Shown piece by piece: positions 9,601 through 62,529 of a stretch of 64,000 nt of DNA. The stretch lies in the NCBI GenBank assembly GCA_046563655.1, contig CM102286.1, positions 1,984,001 to 2,048,000 on the forward strand, read 5' to 3'. The position numbers were made by a program, and so were the translations under genes. The stretch is from Yuukianura sp. NJ FZ-2021 (Eukaryota). The notes beneath the pieces were generated by a model. It was not told where the DNA came from and did not search any database. It worked only from the letters and a program-made list of their open reading frames with translations. Position 1 is the first letter of the stretch, and each line of letters opens with the position of its first letter.

Positions 9601-12600
9601 TGGAAATGCCCGCACTCACAAATCTTTCAACAGGCGCCTTTACCGGGTTTCTGCCAAAATTAAAAACAATGTTAGTATTTAAAACTTCAAAATTCAAAAT
9701 TTCAAAGTTCAAAATTACTCTGACCTCATGTTGCCCTTTGACTTCAACTAAATCTTGGTAACAATTTCAGACGAATTTCCCATTCGGCTTTAACTGTCGT
9801 GCCAAATTTGAGTGGATTGAACACTTCACAGCATTTGGATCTTTTGTAAGTTCAAATAGAACCAATTTATTTTCTATATTGGTAGGTTTGTAAGAAAATC
9901 AAAGGCGTCATCGTGCCTTTTTCGGAAACTTGACTCAATTTCCGTTGTTCAATTCAAGAAATGTATGACATTAAAGAAAAAACTAGTATTTGGTGGTGAT
10001 GATACGTCTATTGTCAAATGTCACTTCGGCAACATAAAATGGCGGATGAGAGTCATAATCCAAGCGGAGGAGTTTATAGCACAACATGGATTACCGTAAA
10101 ACTTCTCATAAACGCCTAAATTTAACAAGCACCAATGTCCGTGAGCAAAGAAAATGCTTTTTCTACAACAGGTTGTCCAATAACTCGGGTATTTTGATTT
10201 AGTGTAAAAATTTTCGAAGATGAAACCGATTGAACTTCACCTCCATCTCTATGGCAATTTTTAACTTGTTTTTTTATTCCTATGCGATTTAGTGTTCAAA
10301 GTTTGAAAAACTAATTGAGGGGCTTAGACGAAGAAGGGCGTATATCGTTGCTACGGAAATTCTTTAGCAAATAAGTTTGTAAACAAGCAATTTTTGCAAT
10401 CGAAATCAACGCAAAAAAGTATCGAAAGTTAGAATTCACTTCGGAGATCATTAAAGACATTAACGATATTAGCTTTTACCAGGGTTGTGTGGTTTTTGTT
10501 TTTGTTTAAATTATAACCAAAAAATTGGTTTTTGCTTTAAATCAGGTTTTTTTATGATTAATTTTTATTATTATAGGCAAGGCAAATATATCCAAAAGTT
10601 GAATTTCAGCTGAATTTTTCAAAATTCCAATTCCTCAAAAAGTAAGTGTACAAGTGAATTTTTCAAAATTCTGTCACGTCAAAAAGTTGGAGAACAGGTG
10701 AATTTCTCACGAGACCAACATTTCGAGACGGTAGAGTACGCGTGAATTTTCGGCAAGGCAAATATATCCAAAAGTTGAATTTCAGCTGAATTTTTCAAAA
10801 TTCCAATTCCTCAAAAAGTAAGTGTACAAGTGAATTTTTCAAAATTCTGTCACGTCAAAAAGTTGGAGAACAGGTGAATTTCTCACGAGACCAACATTTC
10901 GAGACGGTAGAGTACGCGTGAATTTTACTGTGAACCGGACCTTGCTAAGTCCCTGGAAGAGAAAAATTTTTACTGTGAACCAGACCTTGCTAAGTCCCTT
11001 GAAGAGAAAAATTTTTACTGTGAACCAGACCTTGCTAAGTCCCTTGAAGAGAAAATTTTTTACTGTGAACCAGACCTTGCTAAGTCCCTTGAAGAGAAAA
11101 TTTTTTACTGTGAACCAGACCTTGCTAAGTCCCTTGAAGAGAAAAATTTTTACTGTGAACCAGACCTTGCTAAGTCCCTTGAAGAGAAAATTTTTTACTG
11201 TGAACCAGACCTTCCTAAGTCCCTTGAAGAGAAAATTTTTTACTGTGAACCAGACCTTGCTAAGTCCCTTGAAGAGAAAAATTTTTACTGTGAACCAGAC
11301 CTTCCTAAGTCCCTTGAAGAGAAAATTTTTTACTGTGAACCAGACCTTGCTAAGTCCCTTGAAGAGAAAAATTTTTACTGTGAACCAGACCTTGCTAAGT
11401 CCGTTGAAGAGAAAATTTTTTACTGTGAACCAGACCTTGCTAAGTCCGTTGAAGAGAAAAATTTTTACTGTGAACCAGACCTTGCTAAGTCCCTTGAAGA
11501 GAAAATTTTTTACTGTGAACCAGACCTTGCTAAGTCCCTTGAAGAGAAAAATTTTTACTGTGAACCAGACCTTGCTAAGTCCCTTGAAGAGAAAATTTTT
11601 TACTGTGAACCAGACCTTGCTAAGTCCCTTGAAGAGAAAAATTTTTACTGTGAACCAGACCTTGCTAAGTCCCTTGAAGAGAAAATTTTTACTGTGAACC
11701 AGACCTTGCTAAGTCCCTTGAAGAGAAAATTTTTTACTGTGAACCAGACCTTGCTAAGTCCCTTGAAGAGAAAATTTTTTACTGTGAACCAGACCTTGCT
11801 AAGTCCCTTGAAGAGAAAAATTTTTACTGTGAACCAGACCTTGCTAAGTCCCTTGAAGAGAAAATTTTTTACTGTGAACCAGACCTTCCTAAGTCCCTTG
11901 AAGAGAAAATTTTTTACTGTGAACCAGACCTTGCTAAGTCCCTTGAAGAGAAAAATTTTTACTGTGAACCAGACCTTGCTAAGTCCGTTGAAGAGAAAAT
12001 TTTTTACTGTGAACCAGACCTTGCTAAGTCCCTTGAAGAGAAAAAATTTTACTGTGAACCAGACCTTGCTAAGTCTCCAGAGTATGAAAAATTTTACTGT
12101 GAACCAGACCTTGCTAAGTCCCTTGAAGAGAAAATTTTTTACTGTGAACCAGACCTTGCTAAGTCCCTTGAAGAGAAAAATTTTTACTGTGAACCAGACC
12201 TTGCTAAGTCCCTTGAAGAGAAAAATTTTTACTGTGAACCAGACCTTGCTAAGTCCCTTGAAGAGAAAATTTTTTACTGTGAACCAGACCTTGCTAAGTC
12301 CCTTGAAGAGAAATTTTTTTACTGTGAACCAGACCTTGCTAAGTCCCTTGAAGAGAAAAATTTTTACTGTGAACCAGACCTTGCTAAGTCCCTTGAAGAG
12401 AAAAATTTTTACTGTGAACCAGACCTTGCTAAGTCCGTTGAAGAGAAAAATTTTTACTGTGAACCGGACCTTGCTAAGTCCCTTGAAGAGAAAAATTTTT
12501 ACTGTGAACCAGACCTTGCTAAGTCCGTTGAAGAGAAAAATTTTTACTGTGAACCGGACCTTGCTAAGTCCCTGGAAGAGAAACATTTTTACTGTGAACC

Positions 12601-15600
12601 AGACCTTGCTAAGTCCCTTGAAGAGAAAAATTTTTACTGTGAAACAGACCTTGCTAAGTCCCTTGAAGAGAAAATTTTTTACTGTGAACCAGACCTTCCT
12701 AAGTCCGTTGAAGAGAAAGATTTTTACTGTGAACCAGACCTTGCTAAGTCCCTTGAAGAGAAAATTTTTTACTGTGAACCAGACCTTCCTAAGTCCCTTG
12801 AAGAGAAAATTTTTTACTGTGAACCAGACCTTGCTAAGTCCCTTGAAGAGAAAAATTTTTACTGTGAACCAGACCTTGCTAAGTCCGTTGAAGAGAAAAT
12901 TTTTTACTGTGAACCGGACCTTGCTAAGTCCCTTGAAGAGAAAAATTTTTACTGTGAACCAGACCTTGCTAAGTCCCTTGAAGAGAAAATTTTTTACTGT
13001 GAACCAGACCTTGCTAAGTCCCTTGAAGAGAAAATTTTTTACTGTGAACCAGACCTTGCTAAGTCCCTTGAAGAGAAAAATTTTTACTGTGAACCAGACC
13101 TTGCTAAGTCCCTTGAAGAGAAAAATTTTTACTGTGAACCAGACCTTGCTAAGTCCCTTGAAGAGAAAAATTTTTACTGTGAACCAGACCTTGCTAAGTC
13201 CCTTGAAGAGAAAATTTTTTACTGTGAACCAGACCTTGCTAAGTCCCTTGAAGAGAAATTTTTTTACTGTGAACCAGACCTTGCTAAGTCCCTTGAAGAG
13301 AAAAATTTTTACTGTGAACCAGACCTTGCTAAGTCCCTTGAAGAGAAAAATTTTTACTGTGAACCAGACCTTGCTAAGTCCGTTGAAGAGAAAAATTTTT
13401 ACTGTGAACCGGACCTTGCTAAGTCCCTTGAAGAGAAAAATTTTTACTGTGAACCAGACCTTGCTAAGTCCGTTGAAGAGAAAAATTTTTACTGTGAACC
13501 GGACCTTGCTAAGTCAGTGGAAGAGAAAAATTTTTACTGTGAACCAGACCTTGCTAAGTCCCTTGAAGAGAAAAATTTTTACTGTGAACCAGACCTTGCT
13601 AAGTCCCTTGAAGAGAAAATTTTTTACTGTGAACCAGACCTTCCTAAGTCCGTTGAAGAGAAAGATTTTTACTGTGAACCAGACCTTGCTAAGTCCCTTG
13701 AAGAGAAAATTTTTTTACTGTGAACCAGACCTTGCTAAGTCCCTTGAGGAGAAAATTTTTTACTGTGAACCAGACCTTGCTAAGTCCCTTGAAGAGAAAA
13801 TTTTTTACTGTGAACCAGACCTTGCTAAATCCGTTGAAGAGAAAATTTTTTCTGTGAACCAGACCTTGCTAAATCCGTTGAAGAGAAAATTTTTTCTGTG
13901 AACCAGACCTTGCTAAGTCCGATCGAACGATCAACGGGTCTTGCAGAAATTAAAAAAAAAATTTTTTAAAGCTCGTTATTATTGAGTACGTTTTCCCCTC
14001 CATGTTTACAAGTTTTTGTGAAGTTGTGAGACTGCAAAATAGCGTCACGTTGTTAAGACAGAGAAACGAGCGCCCTCTATTGGTACTGTAGGGACAACTC
14101 TTCCACTTCTCATCTTTTCATTACCAAGTCAAAAGCCAGGAAAAAACACAAACTCAACCACAACTAATTAATTGAATTTTAACTGAAGTTAGGGACTCCG
14201 AATCATCTCAAACTTAGTACTAATCAACTCCTAATCGAAAGTTGATTAGTACTAAGCACAATTAGTATCAGCTGCTATTTCCTCTGTTGTTTGAAATTAG
14301 GGAATGAGTGTATGGATGAGATTGCCTTTTTCATGGGAGAAGGCAGCTACAGGCAATCTTCCATACACTCGGGACCCAGTCATGCTGCCGGATCAAGAAG
14401 ACGTCACAGGTACGGTGGACAGTGGTGAGATAACTTGCCTGCCACCAGATGGTTCGAATGTTGGAGCTAACCTGACATTCTCGTAGGGCTCGGCGGATTA
14501 GGGTTCGGCGTTTTCGTTTCATTCCGTTTCCGTTTTCGTAAAGTACCGTTTCGTTTTCGTTTCATTTACCGTTCAATCTACGTGGTTTTCAATTAGAGTT
14601 TTCTCATTTGGTTTTTCACAATTGGTTTTCACATTAAGTTAACGAGTTGAGCGCGGGAAAGCGGCGCGGCGCGGTTTTCTCTTTTGGTTGTTTGGTTTGA
14701 ACTCACAACATCTCAGTCTCATGTCACGGGGTTGGTGACCCTTTAAATTGCTGTGTACCGCGGCATGAATTATTGGTAGTTAGTACTGGTTGGTTCGTGT
14801 GGAGTGTTGGTTGGTGCGGCACTGGGGTGCGGGATTCTGGATTTTCGGGCTGGAGTACTCGAGATCAATAACGGGCTGGAGTAGCTGATCAACTGAGGCC
14901 AAATTCTATCTACTACTACCAGAGGTAAAAAGGGGGGTCAAGTCGTGACCTCGAGTGACCGGTCGGCCCTTGGAAGGGAAGAAACCCCCTTCTAAGGTGA
15001 AACTGCTAAGGGCCCGGGAAAAAACGTAAGGATAGGAACGGAAACGGGGGGTTCAAAGTAGAGCGGAAGAGAAGTCCCTTAATTTAACCACTACGAAAAT
15101 TCCTTATCTTACAACATGGGGGCTCAGACGGGAATCCTTAAGCGGTAGATCGGTCAGACGAAGAGATGTCAGAGTTCAAGGCCAAACAATGATTTGTCCA
15201 CTACGCGCGTAAAGTCAAAGTTAAAGTCAAAAGATGGAAAGGAGGTCGCGCAGAGGTAGAGCGCAGGGAAATGGTTGTGCTGAGGCAGTGACCCGGACAA
15301 AAAAGATGGCTGACAAAGTACCGCAAGTGGATCGGAAAATTTTGAACCGGAGAGATTGCCCTCTGCCGAAGTTTGATGGAAGCTACTGCGTACAACCGTA
15401 CGAGTATTTGCTGAAACTGGAACGATACATGCAGGTTTGGGGAATCTGCGAAGAGGACATGATGGAGCAAGTACTTCCGGTCGCATTCTCAGGGAGGGCT
15501 GCAATTTGGTACCAATTCATTTACAAGATCCTGGACAGTTGGAGTACGTTTCGGTCAGAATTCCGGCGCAAGTTTGAACCGCCAGGCTACCAGCGTGAGC

Positions 15601-18600
15601 TGAAGAGAGCACTTCTGGATCGCTACCAAGGCAGAGAAGAAAAGTTGACCGATTATGTGCTGACAATGTGCTCACTATTCGACAAATTGGAAGTTGCACC
15701 AAGTGAAGAACAGAAGGTCATGCAGGTCATTGAACTGATGAACCCAGAATCGAGAGAAAGACTCAGATGGATCGGCCAACGCTTTGCAGACACAAGGGAA
15801 CTGTACAAAGCAGCCGAAGAAGTTGAAAGAAGAATTGCTCTGGACAGTATGTACCATGAGCCAACAACATTCAATGTCATTGACCCTGGACTCTCCTACC
15901 ATGGGAGTAATCATTCCACAGACGCTGATTCTGGATGGATTGACAGGCATGGACGGAAGGCTCGAGGTCAGAGGGAGAAGTCAAGTTTTGGCGGGGCTTC
16001 TCAAGGGCTTTCAAGGCAGTGGGGGAATGGTATAGACCCAAAGGAATTGGCAGTTCCTGTGGACTCGTACGTTGGCGATTCGTCGGCGGTATCGTTTGCT
16101 CCTATGTCTTCGGAAATTCAGAGTGGGATCTACAAGGGAATCACGAGTGAGCGCCCTACTGTAGGAAATGATTGGAAGGGCGGTGATGAGCCTCGTACTC
16201 ATGCGCAGACCCAGGAGTCTGGCACGACGGTGGTTCTCGCTTCACACTCTTCGACGCTTGAAACTGGAATGGACATGGAGCAAGAATCTTTGGAAGATTC
16301 TGAGGTTGATTACTGTGGACTGATTGATGCCTTTGAGAATTGCACAAGCCTTTCATCGAGCCAAGACGAAGTTACTTCGGAAACTCTGACTCGAGGGACG
16401 GAAGTTTCATGTTTCCTGTTGGATTCTCCAGAAGAAAGCCATTGTCAGTTTGGAACGGCGGCATTGGGCGACAAAACTTCTGAAGTTTGGGAAGAGATTA
16501 CTGGAACTTTTGGCTGCAATTACGAAGAATGCATCGCCACAGAAATTGACGACTGGGAAGACTGGGAGGAAGTGTCTGTTGTCAGTACCGAGGTTATCAC
16601 AGATTCCGGAGTAGCTGTCATGTCACTGTCCAGCATTGAACCGTGTCGCGAGAAAGTGGTGGACAAAGGCACGCAACCGCAGCGCTTAAATTTAAATCAA
16701 TTAAATGACTACACCGATCATGACTCTAATGCTCGTCTTTTCTCTGAGTTCCAGACAACTCAGTTGGACATGGACAGACGGAAACGAGCTATACTGGATT
16801 TGACTAAGACGACGGCGCGTTTTCCCAGAGATGGATTCGTGCAGAGGAAAAGAGATGGGACTTGGCCTTTCCGAGGAAAGATGCAACTGGATGTGGACTG
16901 GAAATGGAAAGATGGCCGCCAGAAACGGAGACTGTTGTCTGGACGAGTCACTGCGGAAGGAGAAGACCCTGGAGGCTTCTGCCTGTAATCGAATTGGAAT
17001 GAAAACTGGATTGGACATTGGAGACGGTGAGTGAAACGTACTCTGATTCTAGAAAATGATTCTAGCTACAATACTGGTACTGTAGGTTCATGAGGGTGCG
17101 TTTTGTATTCTGGGCTAACGTATTGTGCAGTGTTTAAACAAACTGAAACAATTCGAAATGAAGCAAAAATCGGACTTGTCAATGTGTTCTAGATATTTTT
17201 AAACATTGTTTTGGCTGTTCTGAACATGTTCTAGACATTGCTAGTTTGTTCTGAACATGTTCTAAACATCGCTAGCTTTGTTTTGAACATGTTTTAAACA
17301 CCGCTAGCTTTGTTCTGAAAATGGCCTGAGTCTGAATATAAGGTTGCGGTGATCAAAATTTGTTCTGAAAGAATTAGCGAATTTGAATTGCTACTTTTGT
17401 TGTTTGTCACCAGCCCCACAGTCAGAATACGTTCCTGAGACATGTTTTGCGGAATTGCAAAAAATACTGTAGAATGGATTCTAGAAGTTCCGCTACAGTC
17501 TAGAATACGTTTCTAGAATCAGAGTACGAAAAACTCACCGTCTCTATTGGATTACCTACTACTGGATACCCTCCCTTGTAAATTTTTCGTTTTCGTCCTA
17601 AAAGAATTTTTGTCCCCGTAGTTTTAATCACAAATTAATTTTTCTTTTGAATTTTTGGAAATGTTAAAGCTCAAGTTAAATCTAGAAGTTAAGATTACTT
17701 GTAAATATTTTAAAATGGAAATGGGAAGTGGGTCAGAGAGAGAAAAACTGAATAAGAAGTGTACTGACCGCTTCGTGGCTTTGTGAGGGGGGATGTTGTG
17801 AGACTGCAAAATAGCGTCACGTTGTTAAGACAGAGAAACGAGCGCCCTCTATTGGTACTGTAGGGACAACTCTTCCACTTCTCATCTTTTCATTACCAAG
17901 TCAAAAGCCAGGAAAAAACACAAACTCAACCACAACTAATTAATTGAATTTTAACTGAAGTTAGGGACTCCGAATCATCTCAAACTTAGTACTAATCAAC
18001 TCCTAATCGAAAGTTGATTAGTACTAAGCACAATTAGTATCAGCTGCTATTTCCTCTGTTGTTTGAAATTAGGGAATGAGTGTATGGATGAGATTGCCTT
18101 TTTCATGGGAGAAGGCAGCTACAGGCAATCTTCCATACACTCGGGACCCAGTCATGCTGCCGGATCAAGAAGACGTCACAGGTACGGTGGACAGTGGTGA
18201 GATAACTTGCCTGCCACCAGATGGTTCGAATGTTGGAGCTAACCTGACATTCTCGTAGGGCTCGGCGGATTAGGGTTCGGCGTTTTCGTTTCATTCCGTT
18301 TCCGTTTTCGTAAAGTACCGTTTCGTTTTCGTTTCATTTACCGTTCAATCTACGTGGTTTTCAATTAGAGTTTTCTCATTTGGTTTTTCACAATTGGTTT
18401 TCACATTAAGTTAACGAGTTGAGCGCGGGAAAGCGGCGCGGCGCGGTTTTCTCTTTTGGTTGTTTGGTTTGAACTCACAACATCTCAGTCTCATGTCACG
18501 GGGTTGGTGACCCTTTAAATTGCTGTGTACCGCGGCATGAATTATTGGTAGTTAGTACTGGTTGGTTCGTGTGGAGTGTTGGTTGGTGCGGCACTGGGGT

Positions 18601-52833: not shown

Positions 52834-53508
52834 TGATAGATGGCTTTCCTTCCTGAATCCTGATAATTTCTGTAAAAGCGAAAACGAATAAATTAAACTG
52901 ACTGTAAAACTTTCGCTTTAAGCAATATGGAATACCACTGACCTCGTACACTTATGTTTTAACTTTATTTGTGTTTCAGTGGTCTATGAATTTTTTTTGA
53001 CAGACTTCCAATAAATTCAACCAGAAAGAAGAAAGTAATAAAACTTTAAACTCAAAGCACTAAAGTGGGAGTGCGCCTAATTTCCGGAAACTAGGTATGG
53101 AGAAAAAGGACTGATGCGAGGGGTTTGTACCAGCTAACCAACGAATTAGTAGCAATAACCTTATCATTAACAGCATCATTGATGTTTTCATTATTTCTTT
53201 ATATTTTATAAACTTGAAATTTTTCGATACACACAACCATGCTTATCCTTCTTCGCAATCGCAAGCTTTGTTTTTGTTGCCAGATTGTCATCGGATATCT
53301 ACATTCTATTCCGGGGAATAGGGAGATACCATGGTTAAACTTTTTTTTTTGCATTTACAATAATCTTGAAGAATTTTGATGATTTCGCGGATTATATTTG
53401 TGGGAGTTCTTCATTAGTTCCACGCAGGGTCACATGATGCGACATACTCACTCTGTTGCCCCACGAAGCATGCCAATCGGCCAATCACAGACAGTAAACA
53501 AGGGATCT

Positions 53509-53772
53509 GACTAAAAGTAGGATCTCGGATTCTACTGATTTGTATGAGGGCATACAAACTAAACTGTTATGTTGGACTCGAATTTTTAAAAGTCACATCT
53601 GAACAGTCGCCCGCGTCTAGACTCCACCAGCGTGAGGTTATACTTCAATGGTTACGTTTGCTAAGGTTTTTTCTTCTAAAGTAAACTTCAACTCTTAGGT
53701 TTTTACCGTCCGAAGAATGACAGTATGTACCCCTCATACAAATCCGAGGAATCCGCGATCCGACTTTTAGCC
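53509..53772. mobile_element. MITE-like element with about 47-bp TIRs; its right about 125 bp is duplicated at 53807-53866 plus 54273-54338
   Basis: GACTAAAAGTAGGATCTCGGATTCTACTGATTTGTATGAGGGCATACA is inverted to TGTACCCCTCATACAAATCCGAGGAATCCGCGATCCGACTTTTAGCC. No TSD recognised. Confidence 0.7.
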
Positions 53773-53866
53773 AGCCCCGGGGACACACATCTCTCTTTAT
53801 GTAGATGATGGTTACGTTTGCTAAGGTTTTTTCTTCTAAAGTAAACTTCAACTCTTAGGTTTTTAC

Positions 53867-54264
53867 CAGTGTTGGTGGACGCTTAAACGTCCAGTGGCTT
53901 AATTGCCACTTCCAGTGGATATCCACTGGAAGAAACGCACCCCAAATGGACGAAACTAAAAGTGGATGGAAGAAATCACAAATTTTGCGCGAAATTCAAA
54001 TCAATTCAAATTTAAATTTACGAAATGATATCAGAAAACTTTACTTTCGCGATTATAGTTAATATATTATTTAAAACGTATTTAAAAAGAATATATACAT
54101 AGTTTTTGAACTGTGTTTTCACGTTTTTTAGTTGTTTGTAGTCAATTAATTCAAATTCAGAGGGTAAAGCTCCGCCCCTTTGGATTCATCCATTTCGTCC
54201 ATTTCTTCCACTGGATATCCAGCCGTGGATGAAATGCCGAAAAAGTGGATATCCACCAACACTG
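53867..54264. mobile_element. hAT-type MITE
   Basis: TIR CAGTGTTGGTGGA...TCCACCAACACTG; 8-bp TSD GTTTTTAC at 53859-53866 and 54265-54272; subterminal CCAGTGGA/TCCACTGG motifs. Confidence 0.9.
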
Positions 54265-54510
54265 GTTTTTACCAAGCGAAGAATGACAGTATGTACCCCT
54301 CATACAAATCCGAGGAATCCGCGATCCGACTTTTAGCCGGACCTGGAAGCAGATGACAGACGGAGGGATTTCATTGTTAGCTTTTTGAGTTTGTTTTCTC
54401 GATTAACCGTTGAGTGTTGATATGAATTGAGTTGATTTTTGGTTTACAATTGGTTGAACTATCTAAACTACGAATTGATTGCGAACGGGCCGAAGCCGAA
54501 TTTGAGAATA

Positions 54511-56618
54511 ATGTCCGAAAACAGAAGACGTCGTAGTTCGGTATAAATCATCAAGGAATCTGATTTCATTTTTAACTTTGTACTACTTTGTACTTACATA
54601 GTGATTAGATTACTGAGTATTCCTAGTCCGGGTAAGGCGTTTTGTATTGATGAGTGATGACTATGATTTTCATTTTAAGATTTTGAAGTCTCGGAGTTCT
54701 TTAACTGGATCTGCGCAAATTGTTGACCCGAATGTCACGCAGCACTTTGAGATCGGGACGGATATGATGGACATGGACGTAGACTCTGATAATACCACCA
54801 AAATATCCAAAATTCTCAGAAGTAAAAGAGTCAGTTTTGCTGGGACAGGAGATTCCTCTGAAGATGGGTAAGCATACTAGTCATATTTTGGCTTTTGAGG
54901 TAAATTGATTGAACAATATTCGTTTCAAGCAGGAAGAGTACTGCTAAATCTGACACTGTCGTGGAACTATGCACAACAAGATACTTCGACCCAATCGACT
55001 TGTGTACAACGGTATATCCTGATGATGGACACAATATTGTGATTCCGAACGGCCAAAGCGATGAGGCAGATTCGCAAGCGGATGCCAATCGTCTAGTTGA
55101 CAATCAACTGACGACGACGATTCTTCAAAATCAAACTATGGATCTTACATGTTACGCTATTTCGTAAGTGACATATTCCTTGAATCTTAAGTCACTTTAC
55201 ACTTGATGAGGCTTATAAAACGTTTTTAGTTTCCATTTTTAACGAAAAATTTTCTATACAGCGTGGAATCCGAAACGGATGAGCCTGTGAAAGCCAAGAT
55301 CAGCTCAAGCACAACACTGGATAGGAAAAATTCACGTTATGGTCCTTTCGCAAGTGTGAGAACTCCCTACCAGAACCGAAACAAAGTCGCAAAGCGCCAT
55401 CGACGTTATGGTGGAGGACTTCTTCCTCTGAAAATTCAAGAACTGTCGACGATTTTTTCAGAGTGCAGTGTGACAGAAAGGAGTACGCTTCCGTTGCCGC
55501 TCAAAATCAAAGGGTCAGTTTCAACAGAAGTTCCGTCTTTGTCATGCTCCGTATTCCCTCCACCGTCACTTGGGGCAAACCCTCCATTTCCAACGTCTGT
55601 ACCGCCTCATGCCAATGCTCCTGTTCCGGTCTTGACAAAGTCCCTGCCAGTGGAATCCCCTACGAGATTTGAGGCCAAGCCTCCACCATCATCACTGCAT
55701 AATGCTGTTACTGCTCCTCCTCCACTCGTTACCAATTTAGCGTTTGTGGAAGATCCACTGCCAATTTCAATTCCAGCACCACCCGCAACACTGGTACGAC
55801 ATCCACTGCCAATTTCAATTCAAGCACCGCCAGCAACACTGGTACAAGATCCACTGCCAATTTCAATTCAAGCACCGCCAGCAACACTGGTACAAGATCT
55901 ACTGCCAATTTCAATTCCAGCACCACCCGCAACACTGGTACGACATCCACTGCCAATTTCCATTCAAGCACTGCCCGCAACACTGGTAGAAGATCCACTG
56001 CCAATTTCAATTCAAGCACCGCCCGAAACGCTGTTAGAAGATCCACTGCCAATTTCAATTCAAGCACCGCCCGCAACACTGGTAGAAGATCCACTGCCAA
56101 TTTCAATTCAGGCACCGCCCGCAACACTGCTAGAAGATCCACTGCCAATTTCAATTCAAGCACCGCCCGAAACGCTGTTAGAAGATCCACTGCCAATTGC
56201 AATTCAAGCACCGCCCGCAACACTGCAGTTGCACTTGAAATCATACCCAACATCACATGACAGAGAAAGGGCCAAGTGCCTAAAAGCAATCGAAAAGGAA
56301 TTGGAAGAACCGGCTCCACCATCATCATTACACGATGTTACTCCTCTTCCAGTCATGACCAATTCAGCGTTTGTGGAAGATCCACTGCCAATTTCAATTC
56401 AAGCACCGACCGCAGCACTACAGTTTCACTTGAAATCATACCTAACTTTACATGGCAGAGAAAGGGCCAAGTGCCTAAAAGCAATCGAAAAGGAGTTGGA
56501 AGAAATGACTCCAGCAGTTCTACGGAGATTTTTGCAGTACTCGGGTTCCATTTTTCCTGAACGATGGATCCAAACGACGGAAATGTGTATCCGAGTAGCA
56601 GAGAAGATGTTCAACTAA
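54511..56618 (+). CDS. KNL1/Spc105-like protein, about 600 aa: N-terminal SILK and RVSF PP1-docking motifs, MELT-like motifs, Pro-rich tandem repeats; exons 54511-54540, 54680-54867, 54930-55163, 55262-56618
   Basis: Spliced start MSENRRRRSS|ILK, then KRVSF, then VELCT, IDLCT, TMDLT; introns are GT-AG and phase-consistent; TAA at 56616-56618. Confidence 0.7.
55746..56225 (+). repeat. Coding minisatellite, 10 x 48 bp (16 aa: VEDPLPISIQAPPATL)
   Basis: Ten consecutive in-frame units; an eleventh sits in the duplicated module at about 56316-56503. Confidence 0.93.
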
Positions 56619-56848
56619 GATATCCATCAACATTAGAGAAGCCATGACAAAGTATAATCCAATATCCAGTTAAGTGTTATGTTTATTATTCATTCTTTTG
56701 TTTACATATTTCATTTTCTATAAAATACAATGATCTGACTACTATTAACGAATTTCAATATTTCGGATCCAGAAACTTTGCTGGAGAAACTGGATGCCCA
56801 TCCGTTTCTGTCACGGTGACAAGGGAGAATGTGCATTAAGAAAATGAA

Positions 56849-57110
56849 GGCTAGGGTAATCCTGAATTGCCTTCATTGTAACCACCCACTGTAACCATCG
56901 ACACCATTTTTTTTGTATCATTGCGTCTTCTCAGTGGTCACAATGCTTGGTTACACTAGGTGGTTGCATATGTAACCGCTGGTTAGATTTTTTGAAGGTG
57001 TAAAATGGCTGTCACATTCTTATTTGTAACTACCCGGTTTAACCACTGCGTGGTAACGAAAATGTTCGCGGTGGTTACAACGGATACAATTTACGTTCGC
57101 CTCAACCGAA
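56849..57110. mobile_element. Degenerate palindromic repeat relic, resembling the inner element at 50124-50332
   Basis: Repeated TGTAACCA / TGGTTACA motifs in both orientations; CCTCAACCG end is similar to GGTTGAGG at 50126. Confidence 0.35.
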
Positions 57111-57442
57111 ATGAAAACTGAAACTATCACTTTCAAGGTTAGGGACGGGATGGACTATACTTTTTGTACTCTAGGGTTATAAAATTGTCTAAAAGCGAGG
57201 AGTTATTTCGTTAGTGCAGTTTTCCAGTTGTTAGGCACGAGTTGTTAGGGAGGTCGAAGTCTCAAACCACTCATTCGCACTGTGATAACCTCGGGATACA
57301 TGACATAAGAACACACTTTGGTAAAGTGAAGTGGACATCGGCATAAGAGCGCTAGAACTGTTTCGACTCCACCTCAGTTGCCTTCCGTCTTCGGGTCCGT
57401 TGGATTAGTGCTGTCAGTTGTTAACATTTTTCTAGAATAATC

Positions 57443-58823
57443 ATGGTAAGTAGAAATTGACATCTATGGAAATTGCTGTCGTAATGAACAATGTGATTGA
57501 TTATACTAATCTCGTATCTTTGATTTTCTTAATTCTAGAAAGAACCAATTCGTGTAGCCGTTACCGGAGCTGCCGGTCAAATTGCCTATTCCCTTCTGTA
57601 CCAATTGGCCAAGGGAGATGTGTTCGGTCAAGACCAACCACTCTACCTTCATTTGTTGGATATTCCAGTTATGATGGGAGTCCTGGATGGTGTCGTCATG
57701 GAGATCTTGGACTGTGCTCTGCCACTGATTCGTGGAGTTCTTCCCACTGCTGAGTAACATGATCATTTAAGTGTGACACAATCAAAGCAAAGCATCCTAA
57801 CTTCTGTTGATTAATTGCAGTCCAGAGGCTGCGTTTAAGGACATCGATGCTGCCTTTCTCGTTGGATCAATGCCGCGGAGGGAGGGAATGGAACGTAAAG
57901 ACCTACTCGCCGCCAACGTGACGATCTTCAAAGTTCAAGGTAAAGCGTTGGATCAGTTTGCCAAGAAGAACGTCAAGGTCCTGGTGGTCGGAAATCCAGC
58001 AAATACGAACGCTTTGATGTGTTCAAAATACGCACCATCGATTCCCAAAGAGAATTTTACTGCAATGACACGCTTGGATCAAAATCGAGCTCAGGCTCAA
58101 ATTGCTGCTCGACTGAACACTGGAGTCGAGAATGTCAGAAACGTGATCATTTGGGGCAATCACTCTGCTACTCAATATCCAGATGCCAGATTTGCTCTTG
58201 TTCACAAAGGATCAGAAGAAATTAAGCTTCTCGATACGTTTTCGGATAAGGCGTGGCTTCAAGATCAATTCGTTACGGTACTTCAGTCAACTTAACAATT
58301 TTAACAATTTGTAACAACTTTAAGAATTTTTGGGTTATTATTTTTTCAGACGGTCCAAAAACGTGGTGCTTCCGTCATCGCTGCCCGGAAAATGTCATCC
58401 GCCATGGTAAGGTTTCTTTACAAATCAGGTGACACTTGAGTGACTTACAGCTGACTTACATTTTACATGTTGTTTCCAGTCTGCTGCCAAAGCTGCTTGC
58501 GATCACATGAGAGACTGGTGGCAAGGAACTGCTCCAGGCACTTGGGTGTCTATGGGTGTCATCTCCGGTGGTCAATATGGAGCTCCACAAGACGTCGTGT
58601 TTTCGTTTCCAGTGACATGTTCAAATAAGGGATGGACCATTGTTGAGGTAATGAATTGTTGCAGATCAAGATTTTCAAGTTATCAATCATTTGTTACGAT
58701 TTCATAATTTATGTTATTTTTCAGGGGTTGGAAGTTGATGACTTCAGCAAAGGAAAACTTGAACAAACTGGTCAGGAGTTGGCTGAAGAGCGAGAAGAAG
58801 CTTTGCTCGTATGCAAAGACTAA
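57443..58823 (+). CDS. MDH1: Cytosolic malate dehydrogenase, 6 coding exons (first is ATG only)
   Basis: [105 protein letters not shown] at 58821-58823. Confidence 0.97.
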
Positions 58824-59301
58824 AAACCTCAACGTTACTGGAATATTATACTTCTATTAATCTAACTCAATCTCCAGACGACTCCTACCAGCAAGAGTCC
58901 ATCACATCAACAACAAACGGTAGATCAGAAGTAATTGAGGTGTAGTTACTTTTAGTCAACAGTGGAATTTTCCTTGTGACTCAGCTTTAGAAACTGTTCC
59001 TTCCTTATGTCTAACATATTGGCCAACATCAAACTAATATCAAAAAGTTGTACAAATATCAATCCATTTAAAAAACGACTGATGATACTGTTCGATCCAA
59101 TCCTAAATCTTACCGTGTTACATCTAGAACAACTTATTTTCATTGGTGGTTAGGCAAATGTGAAATAAATTATAGTGTTACTGGTAATGACTACTACGGT
59201 GCTACATACTTGCGCTTTTAGCGATGAGAAGCGTTTTTATTTACGAGCAGGTTGCGCTGCTCACTAATTGGTCCCGTCGAATGTTTTTTTTTTGTGTGTA
59301 A

Positions 59302-60022
59302 TTACTCCTTGAGAGCTGCTTTTTCAATGAAATTGGCCATTTTGATGTCCAGTGCCGTTATGCCCTGAGCATCGTGAGTTGCCAGTGTGATTTGTACTTT
59401 GTTGTAAACATTGAACCATTCTGGATGATGGTCCATTTTCTCAGCCAAAAGAGCCACACGCGTCATGAAACCGAATGCCTATGTGTTTGGATAACGGAAT
59501 TTTACATTTTTAAAAACTTTTTTATAACTGTAGTTTTTTAATGCAAAATTCTTACCTGATTGAAGTTTGTGAAGATAATTTCTTTGTAAATAGCATCCCT
59601 TCCGGAAGTAATTGTCCAGCCAGCCTTGAGCAGTGGTTCCAGCACCTCCTTCCTTTCGTCTTCAGTCAGTTTTGTTCGTGGTGCCTAAATCAACAAACAT
59701 TTTGATACAAATAAACCAAATATCAGAATAATACTTATAGTGTAACATTTTGAATTTATTAGCTTACCATTTTCTTGACAGTTTTGTTACAACTGGTTGT
59801 ACTGGTACTCAGGAGACGTAACAAATGACAGGACTGGAGAAGAAACTTGTCTGGACGACTGACGCTAGCGGTGGGAGTGGATGAGCTACTGAGGTCGACC
59901 GTCCTTGAACTGTTGAGATTGCGTAACCTGGATAAATGATGATTTGTTGCAGAATAAGGAGAGTCAGATGTTAGCCTTTGACAGATACGGAGTGACCTTG
60001 AAGTCAGTTGCTGGAGCAGCAT
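59302..60022 (-). CDS. PCBD: Pterin-4-alpha-carbinolamine dehydratase (PCBD/DCoH) with N-terminal presequence-like extension, 3 coding exons
   Basis: GWT...[50 protein letters not shown]....[12 protein letters not shown] at 59302-59304. Confidence 0.93.
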
Positions 60023-60398
60023 CCCTTCCCTGGAAGAAACAAAATCTTATAACACTTTAGAGGTGCCGAATGAGTCCAAGAAAGACCGATCCCGATCATA
60101 TTATAAGCAAAGCATAAGCTATAACGTGTGCTTCTTACGGCAATAGACGACGATTGGTATACAGAAACTTGTATGTAGAGTTTCTGGAACGTTAAAAGCT
60201 AGTAACGTTAAGTTGTTAGACTGATCTCTTGCATTATGGAAGCCTACAAGGTCAAAGATTAATCGGGTGTAGTTGCTATTGGATAATTGATTAAGCATTA
60301 AATTTCAATTAGCTGATGAAATGGATGAAGTAAAGCACAACTTTCGATTGCAAACTTTATTCTTTTCAGCCAAAGAGAAATGCTAAGAAAATGGCTTC

Positions 60399-60428
60399 CA
60401 AAATGGCGGTTTGGTCTGGCGCATGCGC
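60399..60428. promoter_or_regulatory. Candidate bidirectional promoter motifs between PCBD and POLR1E: YY1/Pho-like AAAATGGCGG and NRF-1/Ewg-like GCGCATGCGC
   Basis: CAAAATGGCGG at 60399-60409 and palindrome GCGCATGCGC at 60419-60428, between two divergently oriented genes. Confidence 0.5.
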
Positions 60429-60828
60429 TGTTAAAAAACTATGAACAAAAAATAATCTTTTTTTTTTTACCAAATTATGCTTTGTAGGGTGACAGAGTTT
60501 GTCGTGTGGGGTGTCTTATAGATGGACACAAATATTAAAATGTTGGATTTGTTTTGTTTTTTCAATTTCAATCAAATTCCACGTGTTGCTGCGTTTTTAA
60601 CCAGCATGAAGTTGTAATTGATTAATTATCACTTCAGTCTACTAATTAGTGCACGTAAGACTTACCCGATACAGCTACCACGGTAAGTTATTTTGATGGT
60701 CATCGCAGCGCGAAAGCACCAATATGACAGGAACAGGCTGTTTAGATTTTCAAAATTATAAGTTGATATGACGTTGATATGTCGTTTGCGCCTGTGCAAT
60801 AAGCTAACTTTTTCAAAATATTGCAGGA

Positions 60829-62305
60829 ATGTCGACGAAGGTGAAAGTTCGGAAGGTCGTTGAGAACACGAATTGGGGTGAGCCAATTCTCGTAAATTTT
60901 GAACATGGTAAACTCAACAAGGCAGTGGACACCAGCACTCGGCTCGTCGGGGCAGTTTACGAATCGGGTACAAAGGCTCCAATCAGTATACCGCTAGGAA
61001 CACACGTTGCTCACATGCGAAAACGAGTAGCCGTTGTGCAAGGAGAGAATATGACATACGTTGGTGAATCTGATGGATTACTCAATTCAAACACCAATGG
61101 ACTCAAAACGTTTCTGGCAGTTCGACACAAGAACAAGCTGAAATTATACGAAGCCCACAGACTTACAGTTTCACCATGCCTAACCAACCGAGCTCATCTG
61201 GACGTTAAGGAGTCAAAAAAGGCCGAAGACGTGGAAGAAAAACGAAAAGCGGCAGCAGATTTAGTCAAAGCATTTGGGTCCAAACAGAAGCGACTGTCTT
61301 ATGAGCGTCAAGAAAAAAATGAAATTGACAGTGAACATATGAATGAGAGCATCAATGTTGCTTCAGAAAAAGCTGTAATGCCAACAAAGGTTGGCAGTAC
61401 TGAAGTCATTTCGGATTCGGACATAACTCCACCCTGCAATCGTGATACTAAGGATATTACTCAAGTCTATTCACTCGATGACATTTTAACACCAGAAGAT
61501 TTAGATAACATGGAAGACATGGCTCATGGCTGGCTCGATGCTGATGACACCCAAATCACGGCCTGGAAAATGTCTAAAACGTATGTAAAAATTCATTCTT
61601 ATTCTTAATCCTTAGAAGACTCTTCTAACCTGTTTGTGTTTTCTAGATTTTCCGACTACTTTTTTGCAATGCATCGTCGCCTATCTCCTAAAAAGTCCAA
61701 CTCTAGTGTTGTCCACACCGCAAAATTGGTCATTTACACTGAACTTCTAATCTGCTTAATGAAACTGAAGTATCACGAACTTCGAAAATCAATCATACCA
61801 TTTCCAAGCGAATTCCCAAGATGGCTGGTAGACAAGGCCTTGTCCATTTTCACAGTGATCAACGCTCACAAAATACGGTAAAATTAACTACTCAAATTCA
61901 AGATTAAGTGCAAAACTATAACCAACAATTATCTAATTAATGTAAAATATCTGTTTTCCACTTCTAGCACTCGTTCAGAAGCACTCAGGGACAAAACATG
62001 CTGCTACATTATGGTCCTGGTTTTAATGGCAAACGACTTTCTATTTGACGTACAATTGATGTCAACCACTCTCCAGATTCATATTAACAAGTATGTAAAA
62101 CAAAAGTAAAAAAAACTGTAAATCAAACAGTTTATGTTAAAAATTAAAAAAGTTGACATCCATTAGGTTGTTGACACTGACGAGGGTGGTTGGAATCACA
62201 ACTATTCTAAATCCAGCCACCAAGGAATACCGCGGTCTCTTAAAGTTTCCACTTACAAAACCAATTGAAAGGAGAGCAACGAAGAAGAAATCAGGTGGAA
62301 AATAA
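60829..62305 (+). CDS. POLR1E: RNA polymerase I subunit RPA49/PAF53 (A49-like), 4 coding exons
   Basis: PILVNFEHG, MTYVG, LVKAFGSKQKR, PPCNRD....VYSLDDIL, DKTCCYIMVLVLMANDF, LKFPL; TAA at 62303-62305. Confidence 0.85.
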
Positions 62306-62529
62306 TTATATTTTTGTACACCTAATTTAATACACCAGAAGTTAAATAAAACGTTGAATTTTTACAGCCAATGCTTAATAGAGTTTTAGTAAATTCCAGG
62401 TTCAAATTAAATTAAACAATTCCAGTTAAAAAGTTAGACTTCATATTAAACGTGTGATATTCTTAATTGACCATTATAGATACCGTCTTCGTCCCAGTTT
62501 CACTTTATAAATTAAAAAAAATTGACTTT

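Follow-up and report, generated by a model that had tools for sequence, protein, structure and literature searches.

A gene with a KNL1-like head and a Pro-rich repeat tail is a candidate partial KNL1 duplicate lacking the kinetochore anchor

KNL1 is treated as a single-copy protein whose docking of PP1 and the Bub proteins works only as its C-terminus holds the docking sites at kinetochores. Its RRSSILK and KRVSF motifs dock PP1 and are both switched off by Aurora B, and its MELT motifs, once phosphorylated, dock Bub3-Bub1. What, then, is a gene that carries these words near its N-terminus and continues into an array of Pro-rich repeats, as one does in the window examined here (the whole 64-kb stretch of DNA analysed)?

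The gene lies on the + strand at 54511-56618 and is modelled from its splice sites as four exons (54511-54540, 54680-54867, 54930-55163 and 55262-56618), separated by introns of 139, 62 and 98 nt that all begin with GT and end with AG. Its coding sequence is a single open frame of 1809 nt, or 602 aa plus a stop codon (56616-56618); this agrees with an earlier note on this DNA, which had proposed a product of about 600 aa and a first-intron splice that creates RRSS|ILK, and intron 1 (54541-54679, phase 0) indeed falls between RRSS and ILK. Exon 1 provides the ATG and a basic N-terminal patch, MSENRRRRSS, with no in-frame ATG upstream; an in-frame ATG within intron 1 permits an exon-1-less model that would read KILK instead of SILK, and a tandem AAG/CAG acceptor in intron 2, with its alternative site 3 nt downstream, yields 601 or 602 aa. 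All exon segments are stop-free in the proposed frame and most other frames hold several stops. The first part of exon 4 (55262-55673), for which no homologue was found, is open beyond chance, with a probability of ~7e-5 that its 161 non-repeat codons would stay open. The GC content of exons 2-4 is 42-50%, against 31% in intron 1 and 29% in intron 3 (intron 2 was unscored), and is similar to the 40-46% of neighbouring coding exons; codon usage, scored for each frame, did not favor the proposed one over the others. A sediment metatranscriptome (0.06 word share) gave five contig pieces over 53500-62500, without joints and none on the gene, a cover too thin to judge expression, and one 256-nt contig piece from it is identical to an MDH1 exon. 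The four-exon gene thus appears intact as sequence and is a putative functioning gene.

The motifs of the N-terminal part, or head, were found where the earlier note had placed them. RRSS|ILK occupies aa 7-13, and KRVSFA (aa 59-64, with KRVSF at aa 59-63 and 54824-54838) follows ~45 residues on in exon 2, which also supplies the ILK of SILK; R-x-S sites sit at both the SILK and the RVSF motif. Exon 3 encodes VELCT (aa 84-88), IDLCT (aa 95-99) and TMDLT (aa 142-146), and a basic patch comes after them at aa 172-200 (55323-55409, in exon 4). Among 700 simulated 64-kb windows, matched in dinucleotide make-up and allowed a free choice of splice sites, a loose SILK or GILK upstream of RVxF turned up in 175, a count in which stops left of the junction were not excluded, whereas R.S[SG]ILK together with RVxF was produced by no splice in any of them (0/700). 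The pair alone is therefore cheap, and only the full KNL1-like context is informative.

This context was set, by eye, against 43 of the 110 published KNL1 orthologues (first 400 residues of each), taken from the available part of a survey supplement (PMC4558858). RRSSILK is exact in 11 of these 43 N-termini and an RVSF-type motif stands at a similar distance in 38; RVSFAG is common to the gene and the KNL1 of Daphnia, Rhodnius and Pachypsylla, and the Thr-x-x-Ile lead-in to RVSF resembles that of arthropod KNL1. MDLTC agrees with the arthropod MELT consensus given in the survey, including the Cys that follows. The Panagrellus and Anoplophora entries are interrupted precisely at SS|ILK, which suggests that the gene may share an intron position with KNL1 in these two species. 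Motif context, as read by eye from the orthologues and from the simulation, supports KNL1 ancestry of the head well, and the KNL1-type head first proposed for this gene is probably rightly named.

A feature of KNL1 heads is missing, however. In all 38 RVSF-bearing heads of the comparison (by eye), a V/I-x-x-F/Y motif starts 4-6 residues after the Phe of RVSF; the gene reads AGTGDSSEDG there, and exon 2 holds no GT donor from RVSF to 54868. In the available text of one study, KNL1 contacts PP1 via RVxF and a hydrophobic pair (PMC9813921), and the missing motif is probably this hydrophobic-pair contact; its loss points to relaxed constraint. The Bub arm is also reduced. VELCT and IDLCT belong to an 11-residue stretch present twice in tandem (VELCTTRYFD / IDLCTTVYPD) with TxxY in each copy, the self-repeat score of which is equalled by 3 of 400 exon 3 shuffles and by 15 of 400 shuffles of the whole head; both have Cys where MELT has its phospho-Thr, so that no more than one MELT can safely be taken as usable. 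The sole canonical MELT-like repeat is MDLTC (55138-55152), Pfam returned no MELT match, and KNL1 orthologues in the consulted part of the survey span 0 to ~35 repeats (PMC4558858). The SILK/RVSF/MELT signature claimed for the head therefore holds in its SILK and RVSF part, while its Bub arm is weaker than had been implied.

Beyond the head, exon 4 continues from the basic patch through two LPLKI words (55422 and 55494) and a Ser/Pro-rich linker, and the self-repeat score of aa 152-288 is no better than that of shuffles (139/400). The tail that follows consists of two copies of a ~65-residue unit. Unit 1 (aa 289-501, 55674-56312) has been expanded internally by ten 48-nt/16-aa Pro-rich repeats (55749-56228; a repeat finder counts 9.9 copies at 55749-56225) ahead of the first helical module, and unit 2 (aa 502-566, 56313-56507) comprises one 16-mer, the eleventh copy, at aa 523, and the second module. 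This bears out the description of ten 16-aa repeats and a duplicated helical module, which spans 141 nt at 90% identity. Over these 141 nt, the units differ by 5 synonymous and 12 non-synonymous changes (dN/dS 0.72, P 0.36 vs neutral), and the 16-mers differ among themselves by 5 synonymous and 9 non-synonymous distinct changes (dN/dS 0.69); the tail copies diverge near-neutrally, with a deviation from neutral that is not significant on few changes. The unit lengths (48, 195 and 633 nt) and the single 6-nt indel are all multiples of three, and the frame is kept. The pattern LP[LI]xI[QKP] occurs 13 times in exon 4 (55422-56393), two of them outside the recent repeats with silent differences, and may be a short docking motif. 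It presumably resembles the yeast Crz1 site; reading it as a calcineurin PxIxIT-type site is very improbable, given that Leu-Pro at positions 1-2 is atypical. Position 1 of such a site can be Ile, according to the accessible part of a report on AKAP79 (PMC6728138).

Structure prediction for the tail gave short helices and nothing longer. The C-terminal ~73 aa (56397-56618) were modelled from two sequences as four short helices without strands (pLDDT 68.7, pTM 0.52), helices throughout are predicted at 9-16 aa, and two moderate-confidence models show short helices only; the longest stretch free of Pro and Gly after the repeats is 20 aa, and aa 474-602 are charge-neutral (17 K+R, 17 D+E). Fold searches with two tail models returned generic helical-repeat matches, the best being a CLASP2 TOG domain (Z 6.9 and 7.6, rmsd 3.1 and 2.8 A over 73 residues), and Foldseek gave no E below 0.99. 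RWD and histone folds are not among the fold-search matches listed, in searches of a kind that excludes neither.

The claim that the KNL1 C-terminus is absent is supported on size grounds, for both the long coiled coil and the tandem RWD. Only 129 aa follow the repeat array, partly a second copy of the module, compared with the ~200 aa of the vertebrate RWD pair in the accessible part of its description (PMC5579357), which leaves room at most for a short remnant; a long C-terminal coiled coil cannot fit a tail so broken by Pro and Gly. A check for further exons ahead of MDH1 found no open frame for another domain between the stop codon and MDH1. Short likenesses of the tail to vertebrate and Drosophila KNL1 C-termini, in the sequences available, are visible by eye. 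We considered the tail as a remnant of the KNL1 RWD helices and rejected this, since by eye the registers conflict and the conserved Tyr-Leu and Gly are missing. Lacking the V/I-x-x-F/Y after RVSF, the coiled coil and the tandem RWD, the gene would not be classed as a KNL1 orthologue.

Database searches, within the length and sensitivity limits stated for the tools, did not identify a relative of the gene. Neither exon 2 nor exon 3 retrieved a KNL1 in any of them, as expected for short exons in a family that BLAST misses, according to the consulted part of the survey (PMC4558858). The tail (aa 466-602) against proteins of 248-790 aa gave 2019 candidates with none at E 0.1; exon 2 against longer proteins gave 16 candidates with none at E 10; and exon 3 against 1.84 billion representatives gave two matches, both unrelated tandem-repeat proteins that summed weak stretches. 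The ESM Atlas, queried with the tail and exon 2, held no homologue, nor did the PDB sequences or viral contigs searched; Pfam yielded only sub-threshold LDB19 and DUF629, with no FHA, MELT or histone match. Two loci in prokaryote genomes had one short word in common with the gene and were judged to be chance, and there is no second copy within the 64-kb window. A literature search over titles and abstract openings found no natural anchor-less KNL1 paralogue, although subscription papers and the rest of two supplements may differ, and a search of the same type turned up neither a fusion of KNL1 with a histone nor a study of KNL1 in springtails.

One comparison of the tail deserves separate treatment. 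A profile of both tail copies against the PDB gave an ungapped match to H2A.Z chains over 28 columns (E 1.3-1.8), extended by alignment trimming to as many as 41 columns (E 1.2-1.6, 5 of 7 matches; not significant). Counted by hand, unit 2 and H2A.Z are identical at 16 of 41 positions, among them HLKS and T-x-HGR of the H2A.Z-specific loop, and the alignment, which takes in the first 41 columns of the C-terminal ~73 aa, covers helix 1, loop 1 and helix 2. Of ten PDB searches one gave this match, which ranks no better than an unrelated Spc42 fusion (0.88) and Bop1 (1.2-2.1); the matched chains represent one protein and not independent matches, and with single-copy tail queries H2A.Z was not among the matches listed. 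As a proxy for a direct test we used five viral H2A-like proteins, which lack the H2A.Z-specific loop and are thus weak evidence both ways. In a fixed-register test on the part beyond that loop, 282 of 5000 shuffles scored equally well, a borderline value (P 0.056). The other comparisons with viral H2A were not significant: BLASTP gave E 6.1, shuffle tests gave 981 and 440 of 5000 as good, a profile-profile comparison gave P 0.46, and an HMM and a residue count were equalled in 339 and 1699 of 3000 shuffles, respectively. Of 25 mismatched columns, 12 are one base from the H2A.Z residue where ~9 are expected (P 0.14). The middle of the would-be long helix 2 is charged and contains a Pro, the two-sequence model, of moderate confidence, gives four short helices where a histone fold has short, long and short ones, and a predicted complex between the tail and a viral H2B stand-in scored 0.01, uninformative either way. 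A pattern scan of the viral contigs for an H2A.Z gene gave none, and a plasmid search gave no H2A. On these data, a histone ancestry of the tail is unlikely, and a working chromatin tether less likely still. Among the giant-virus-like contigs, by eye, one (L083) has separate H2A and H2B genes, three (L085, L087 and L088) have H2B-H2A doublets and another (L086) has a longer H2B-H2A-H3-H4-like fusion.

The gene has an ERLEC1-like gene (on the minus strand, with PRKCSH domains) on one side and MDH1 on the other. MDH1 starts ~820 nt beyond the stop codon, and after it come a PCBD-like gene and the gene for RNA polymerase I subunit A49; ERLEC1 and PCBD are names that we assigned from domain and sequence. 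The closest relatives' sequences found were an A49 at 56% and an MDH1 transcript at 87%. MDH1 and the PCBD-like gene are convergent at 57443-59700, and the two closest metatranscriptome contigs (L001 and L002) have the same arrangement, so that this gene order is conserved in relatives. Elsewhere in the searches, MDH1 by eye ends long single frames (L023, L027 and L052) that start GAPDH-like (988 aa), peroxiredoxin-like (535 aa) or phosphoglycerate-mutase-like (1420 aa), which could be either true enzyme fusions or chimeric assemblies. A 398-bp element at 53867-54264, ~250 bp upstream of the ATG, is bounded by terminal inverted repeats of 13 bp, has a target-site duplication whose 8-bp length is hAT-like, and is nested within another inverted-repeat element (53507-54341). 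A 45-bp minisatellite of 66.7 copies (95% matches) at 10923-13920 holds open frames, the longest of 996 codons on one strand and of 622 codons on the opposite strand, and a 587-codon frame at 15225-16985 is retrotransposon gag-like by eye.

We tentatively favor the reading that the gene is a partial KNL1 duplicate under relaxed constraint, with a predicted product that acts as an unanchored PP1 adaptor or buffer. In this proposal, the front end of KNL1 was duplicated, at the DNA level because the introns are kept, and then joined to unrelated coding sequence, a normal full-length KNL1 being assumed elsewhere in the genome. The product would bind PP1 via SILK and RVSF, gated by Aurora B at the R-x-S sites, and more weakly than KNL1 does because the hydrophobic-pair motif is gone; in the accessible text of one study, RVxF is the key PP1 site and SILK adds affinity (PMC8886820). 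Without the coiled coil and RWD it would not be held at kinetochores, and with a single MELT left and Mps1 acting at kinetochores it would bind Bub3-Bub1 only weakly and contribute slightly to checkpoint signalling. The basic N-terminus perhaps contacts microtubules, as that of Drosophila Spc105 does (PMC8886820, same portion). The Pro-rich array would serve as a disordered spacer, little constrained and lengthened by unequal crossing-over, and the four C-terminal helices, if active at all, would decide where PP1 is taken. The likeliest role would be that of a lineage-specific, Aurora-B-gated PP1 adaptor or buffer at microtubules or chromatin in dividing cells. The earlier note had left the choice between a radically remodelled KNL1 and a chimeric paralogue; the paralogue is favored over a sole, remodelled KNL1 because a motif present in 38/38 heads has been lost and the tail copies are near-neutral. 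On the other side, KNL1 ancestry is read from short motifs by eye, and near-neutral divergence over few changes fits a decaying gene equally well.

Such decay is a possible but rather less likely explanation, in which a young partial KNL1 duplicate is barely expressed or dispensable and its frame is open as little time has passed. Loss of the V/I-x-x-F/Y motif, otherwise invariant in the KNL1 heads available for comparison, would suit it, as would the absence of the phospho-Thr from two of the three MELT-like motifs, the dN/dS of ~0.7 in the tail and the transposon-like insertion close upstream of the ATG; however, 602 codons free of stops and frameshifts, with every unit length and the indel in multiples of three, argue against it. 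The exon 3 pair and the two LPLKI words also keep their amino acids while differing silently, a pattern that selection by protein likeness would give as well. That the gene is instead the animal's only KNL1, anchored by the helical tail or another protein or with its coiled coil-RWD part in a separate gene, is improbable, even though the family is normally single-copy with fast repeat turnover in the part of the survey consulted (PMC4558858), which reports one homologue per genome, and although the Daphnia KNL1 entry has just 504 aa and the C. elegans and Brugia entries available end coiled-coil-like with no obvious RWD by eye. In these short or RWD-less orthologues both the V/I-x-x-F/Y and a long coiled coil are retained, the gene has neither, and an essential anchor should not diverge near-neutrally between copies. 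The housekeeping neighbourhood counts for a sole KNL1; so compact a cluster would be equally in keeping with an ancestral locus and with a duplicate.

Two further readings are each quite improbable. In one, the KNL1 head is joined to a degenerate, H2A.Z-derived histone-fold tail that would hold PP1, and perhaps Bub3, at chromatin or on a histone chaperone; the ungapped profile match, the hand-counted identities and the borderline fixed-register value speak for it, and E values above 1, the non-significant remaining comparisons and the Pro and charges in the helix middle speak against it. We give equally little weight to its fullest form, a natural expressed fusion that would bring PP1/Bub3 docking sites to chromatin independently of the Mis12 complex, whether it served as a second scaffold or was the sole KNL1. 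In the other, the gene encodes an unrelated, fast-evolving PP1 regulator in which SILK and RVxF are convergent and the MELT-like words chance. SILK and RVxF do occur in other regulators, for example RRP1B in the accessible text of its description (PMC9813921), the loose pair is frequent in simulation and KNL1 was returned by no search; but the RRSSILK at the extreme N-terminus, RVSFA, their order and spacing, and MDLTC jointly match the arthropod KNL1 entries consulted, the strict context never arose in simulation, RRP1B has its SILK after RVxF, and Ki-67 and bridgin, as described in the text available, carry an FHA domain that was not found in the gene. Among these explanations, we retain the partial KNL1 duplicate acting as an unanchored adaptor as the preferred one.

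Unanchored KNL1 heads are known from engineered constructs in the parts of two reports available (PMC3871444 and 10.1101/154054), and a natural one, if this reading is true, would test whether a free KNL1 head tunes checkpoint silencing or chromosome behaviour. If the gene were the sole KNL1 copy, the outer kinetochore would be anchored in a novel manner; a decaying duplicate would be no more than a curiosity.

Measured against known systems, the gene is closest in its head to KNL1/CASC5/Spc105, which is defined in the consulted part of the survey by SILK/RVSF, MELT repeats, a coiled coil and RWD (PMC4558858). With the orthologues available it has in common a basic N-terminus, RRSSILK, KRVSFA, MDLTC with TxxY/L nearby and fast-changing repeats, but its own repeats are Pro-rich without MELT, its canonical MELT is single and it has no anchor domains. 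Daphnia pulex KNL1 (504 aa) and C. elegans KNL-1, in the entries available, indicate that a short length or the lack of an obvious RWD can be tolerated; both retain the V/I-x-x-F/Y as well as either an RWD-like region or a long coiled coil, and the gene has neither. In general layout the gene also recalls bridgin, Ki-67 and Repo-Man, which in the accessible text (PMC7794384) are mostly disordered, dock PP1 near the N-terminus and continue through a long spacer to a C-terminus that may face chromatin. Unlike bridgin and Ki-67 as described there, it has no FHA domain and no basic C-terminal domain, its N-terminus opens with a basic patch and SILK and its C-terminal 129 aa are charge-neutral, so that the analogy is functional only. 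The engineered fragments are unanchored one-MELT heads like that of the gene, but they are forcibly tethered constructs. In the available parts of those reports, human KNL1 1-261 tethered to LacO, with one MELT and KI motifs, recruits BUB1 (PMC3871444), and in a cytosolic eSAC phosphodomain a single MELT signals poorly even with Mps1 forced onto it (10.1101/154054).
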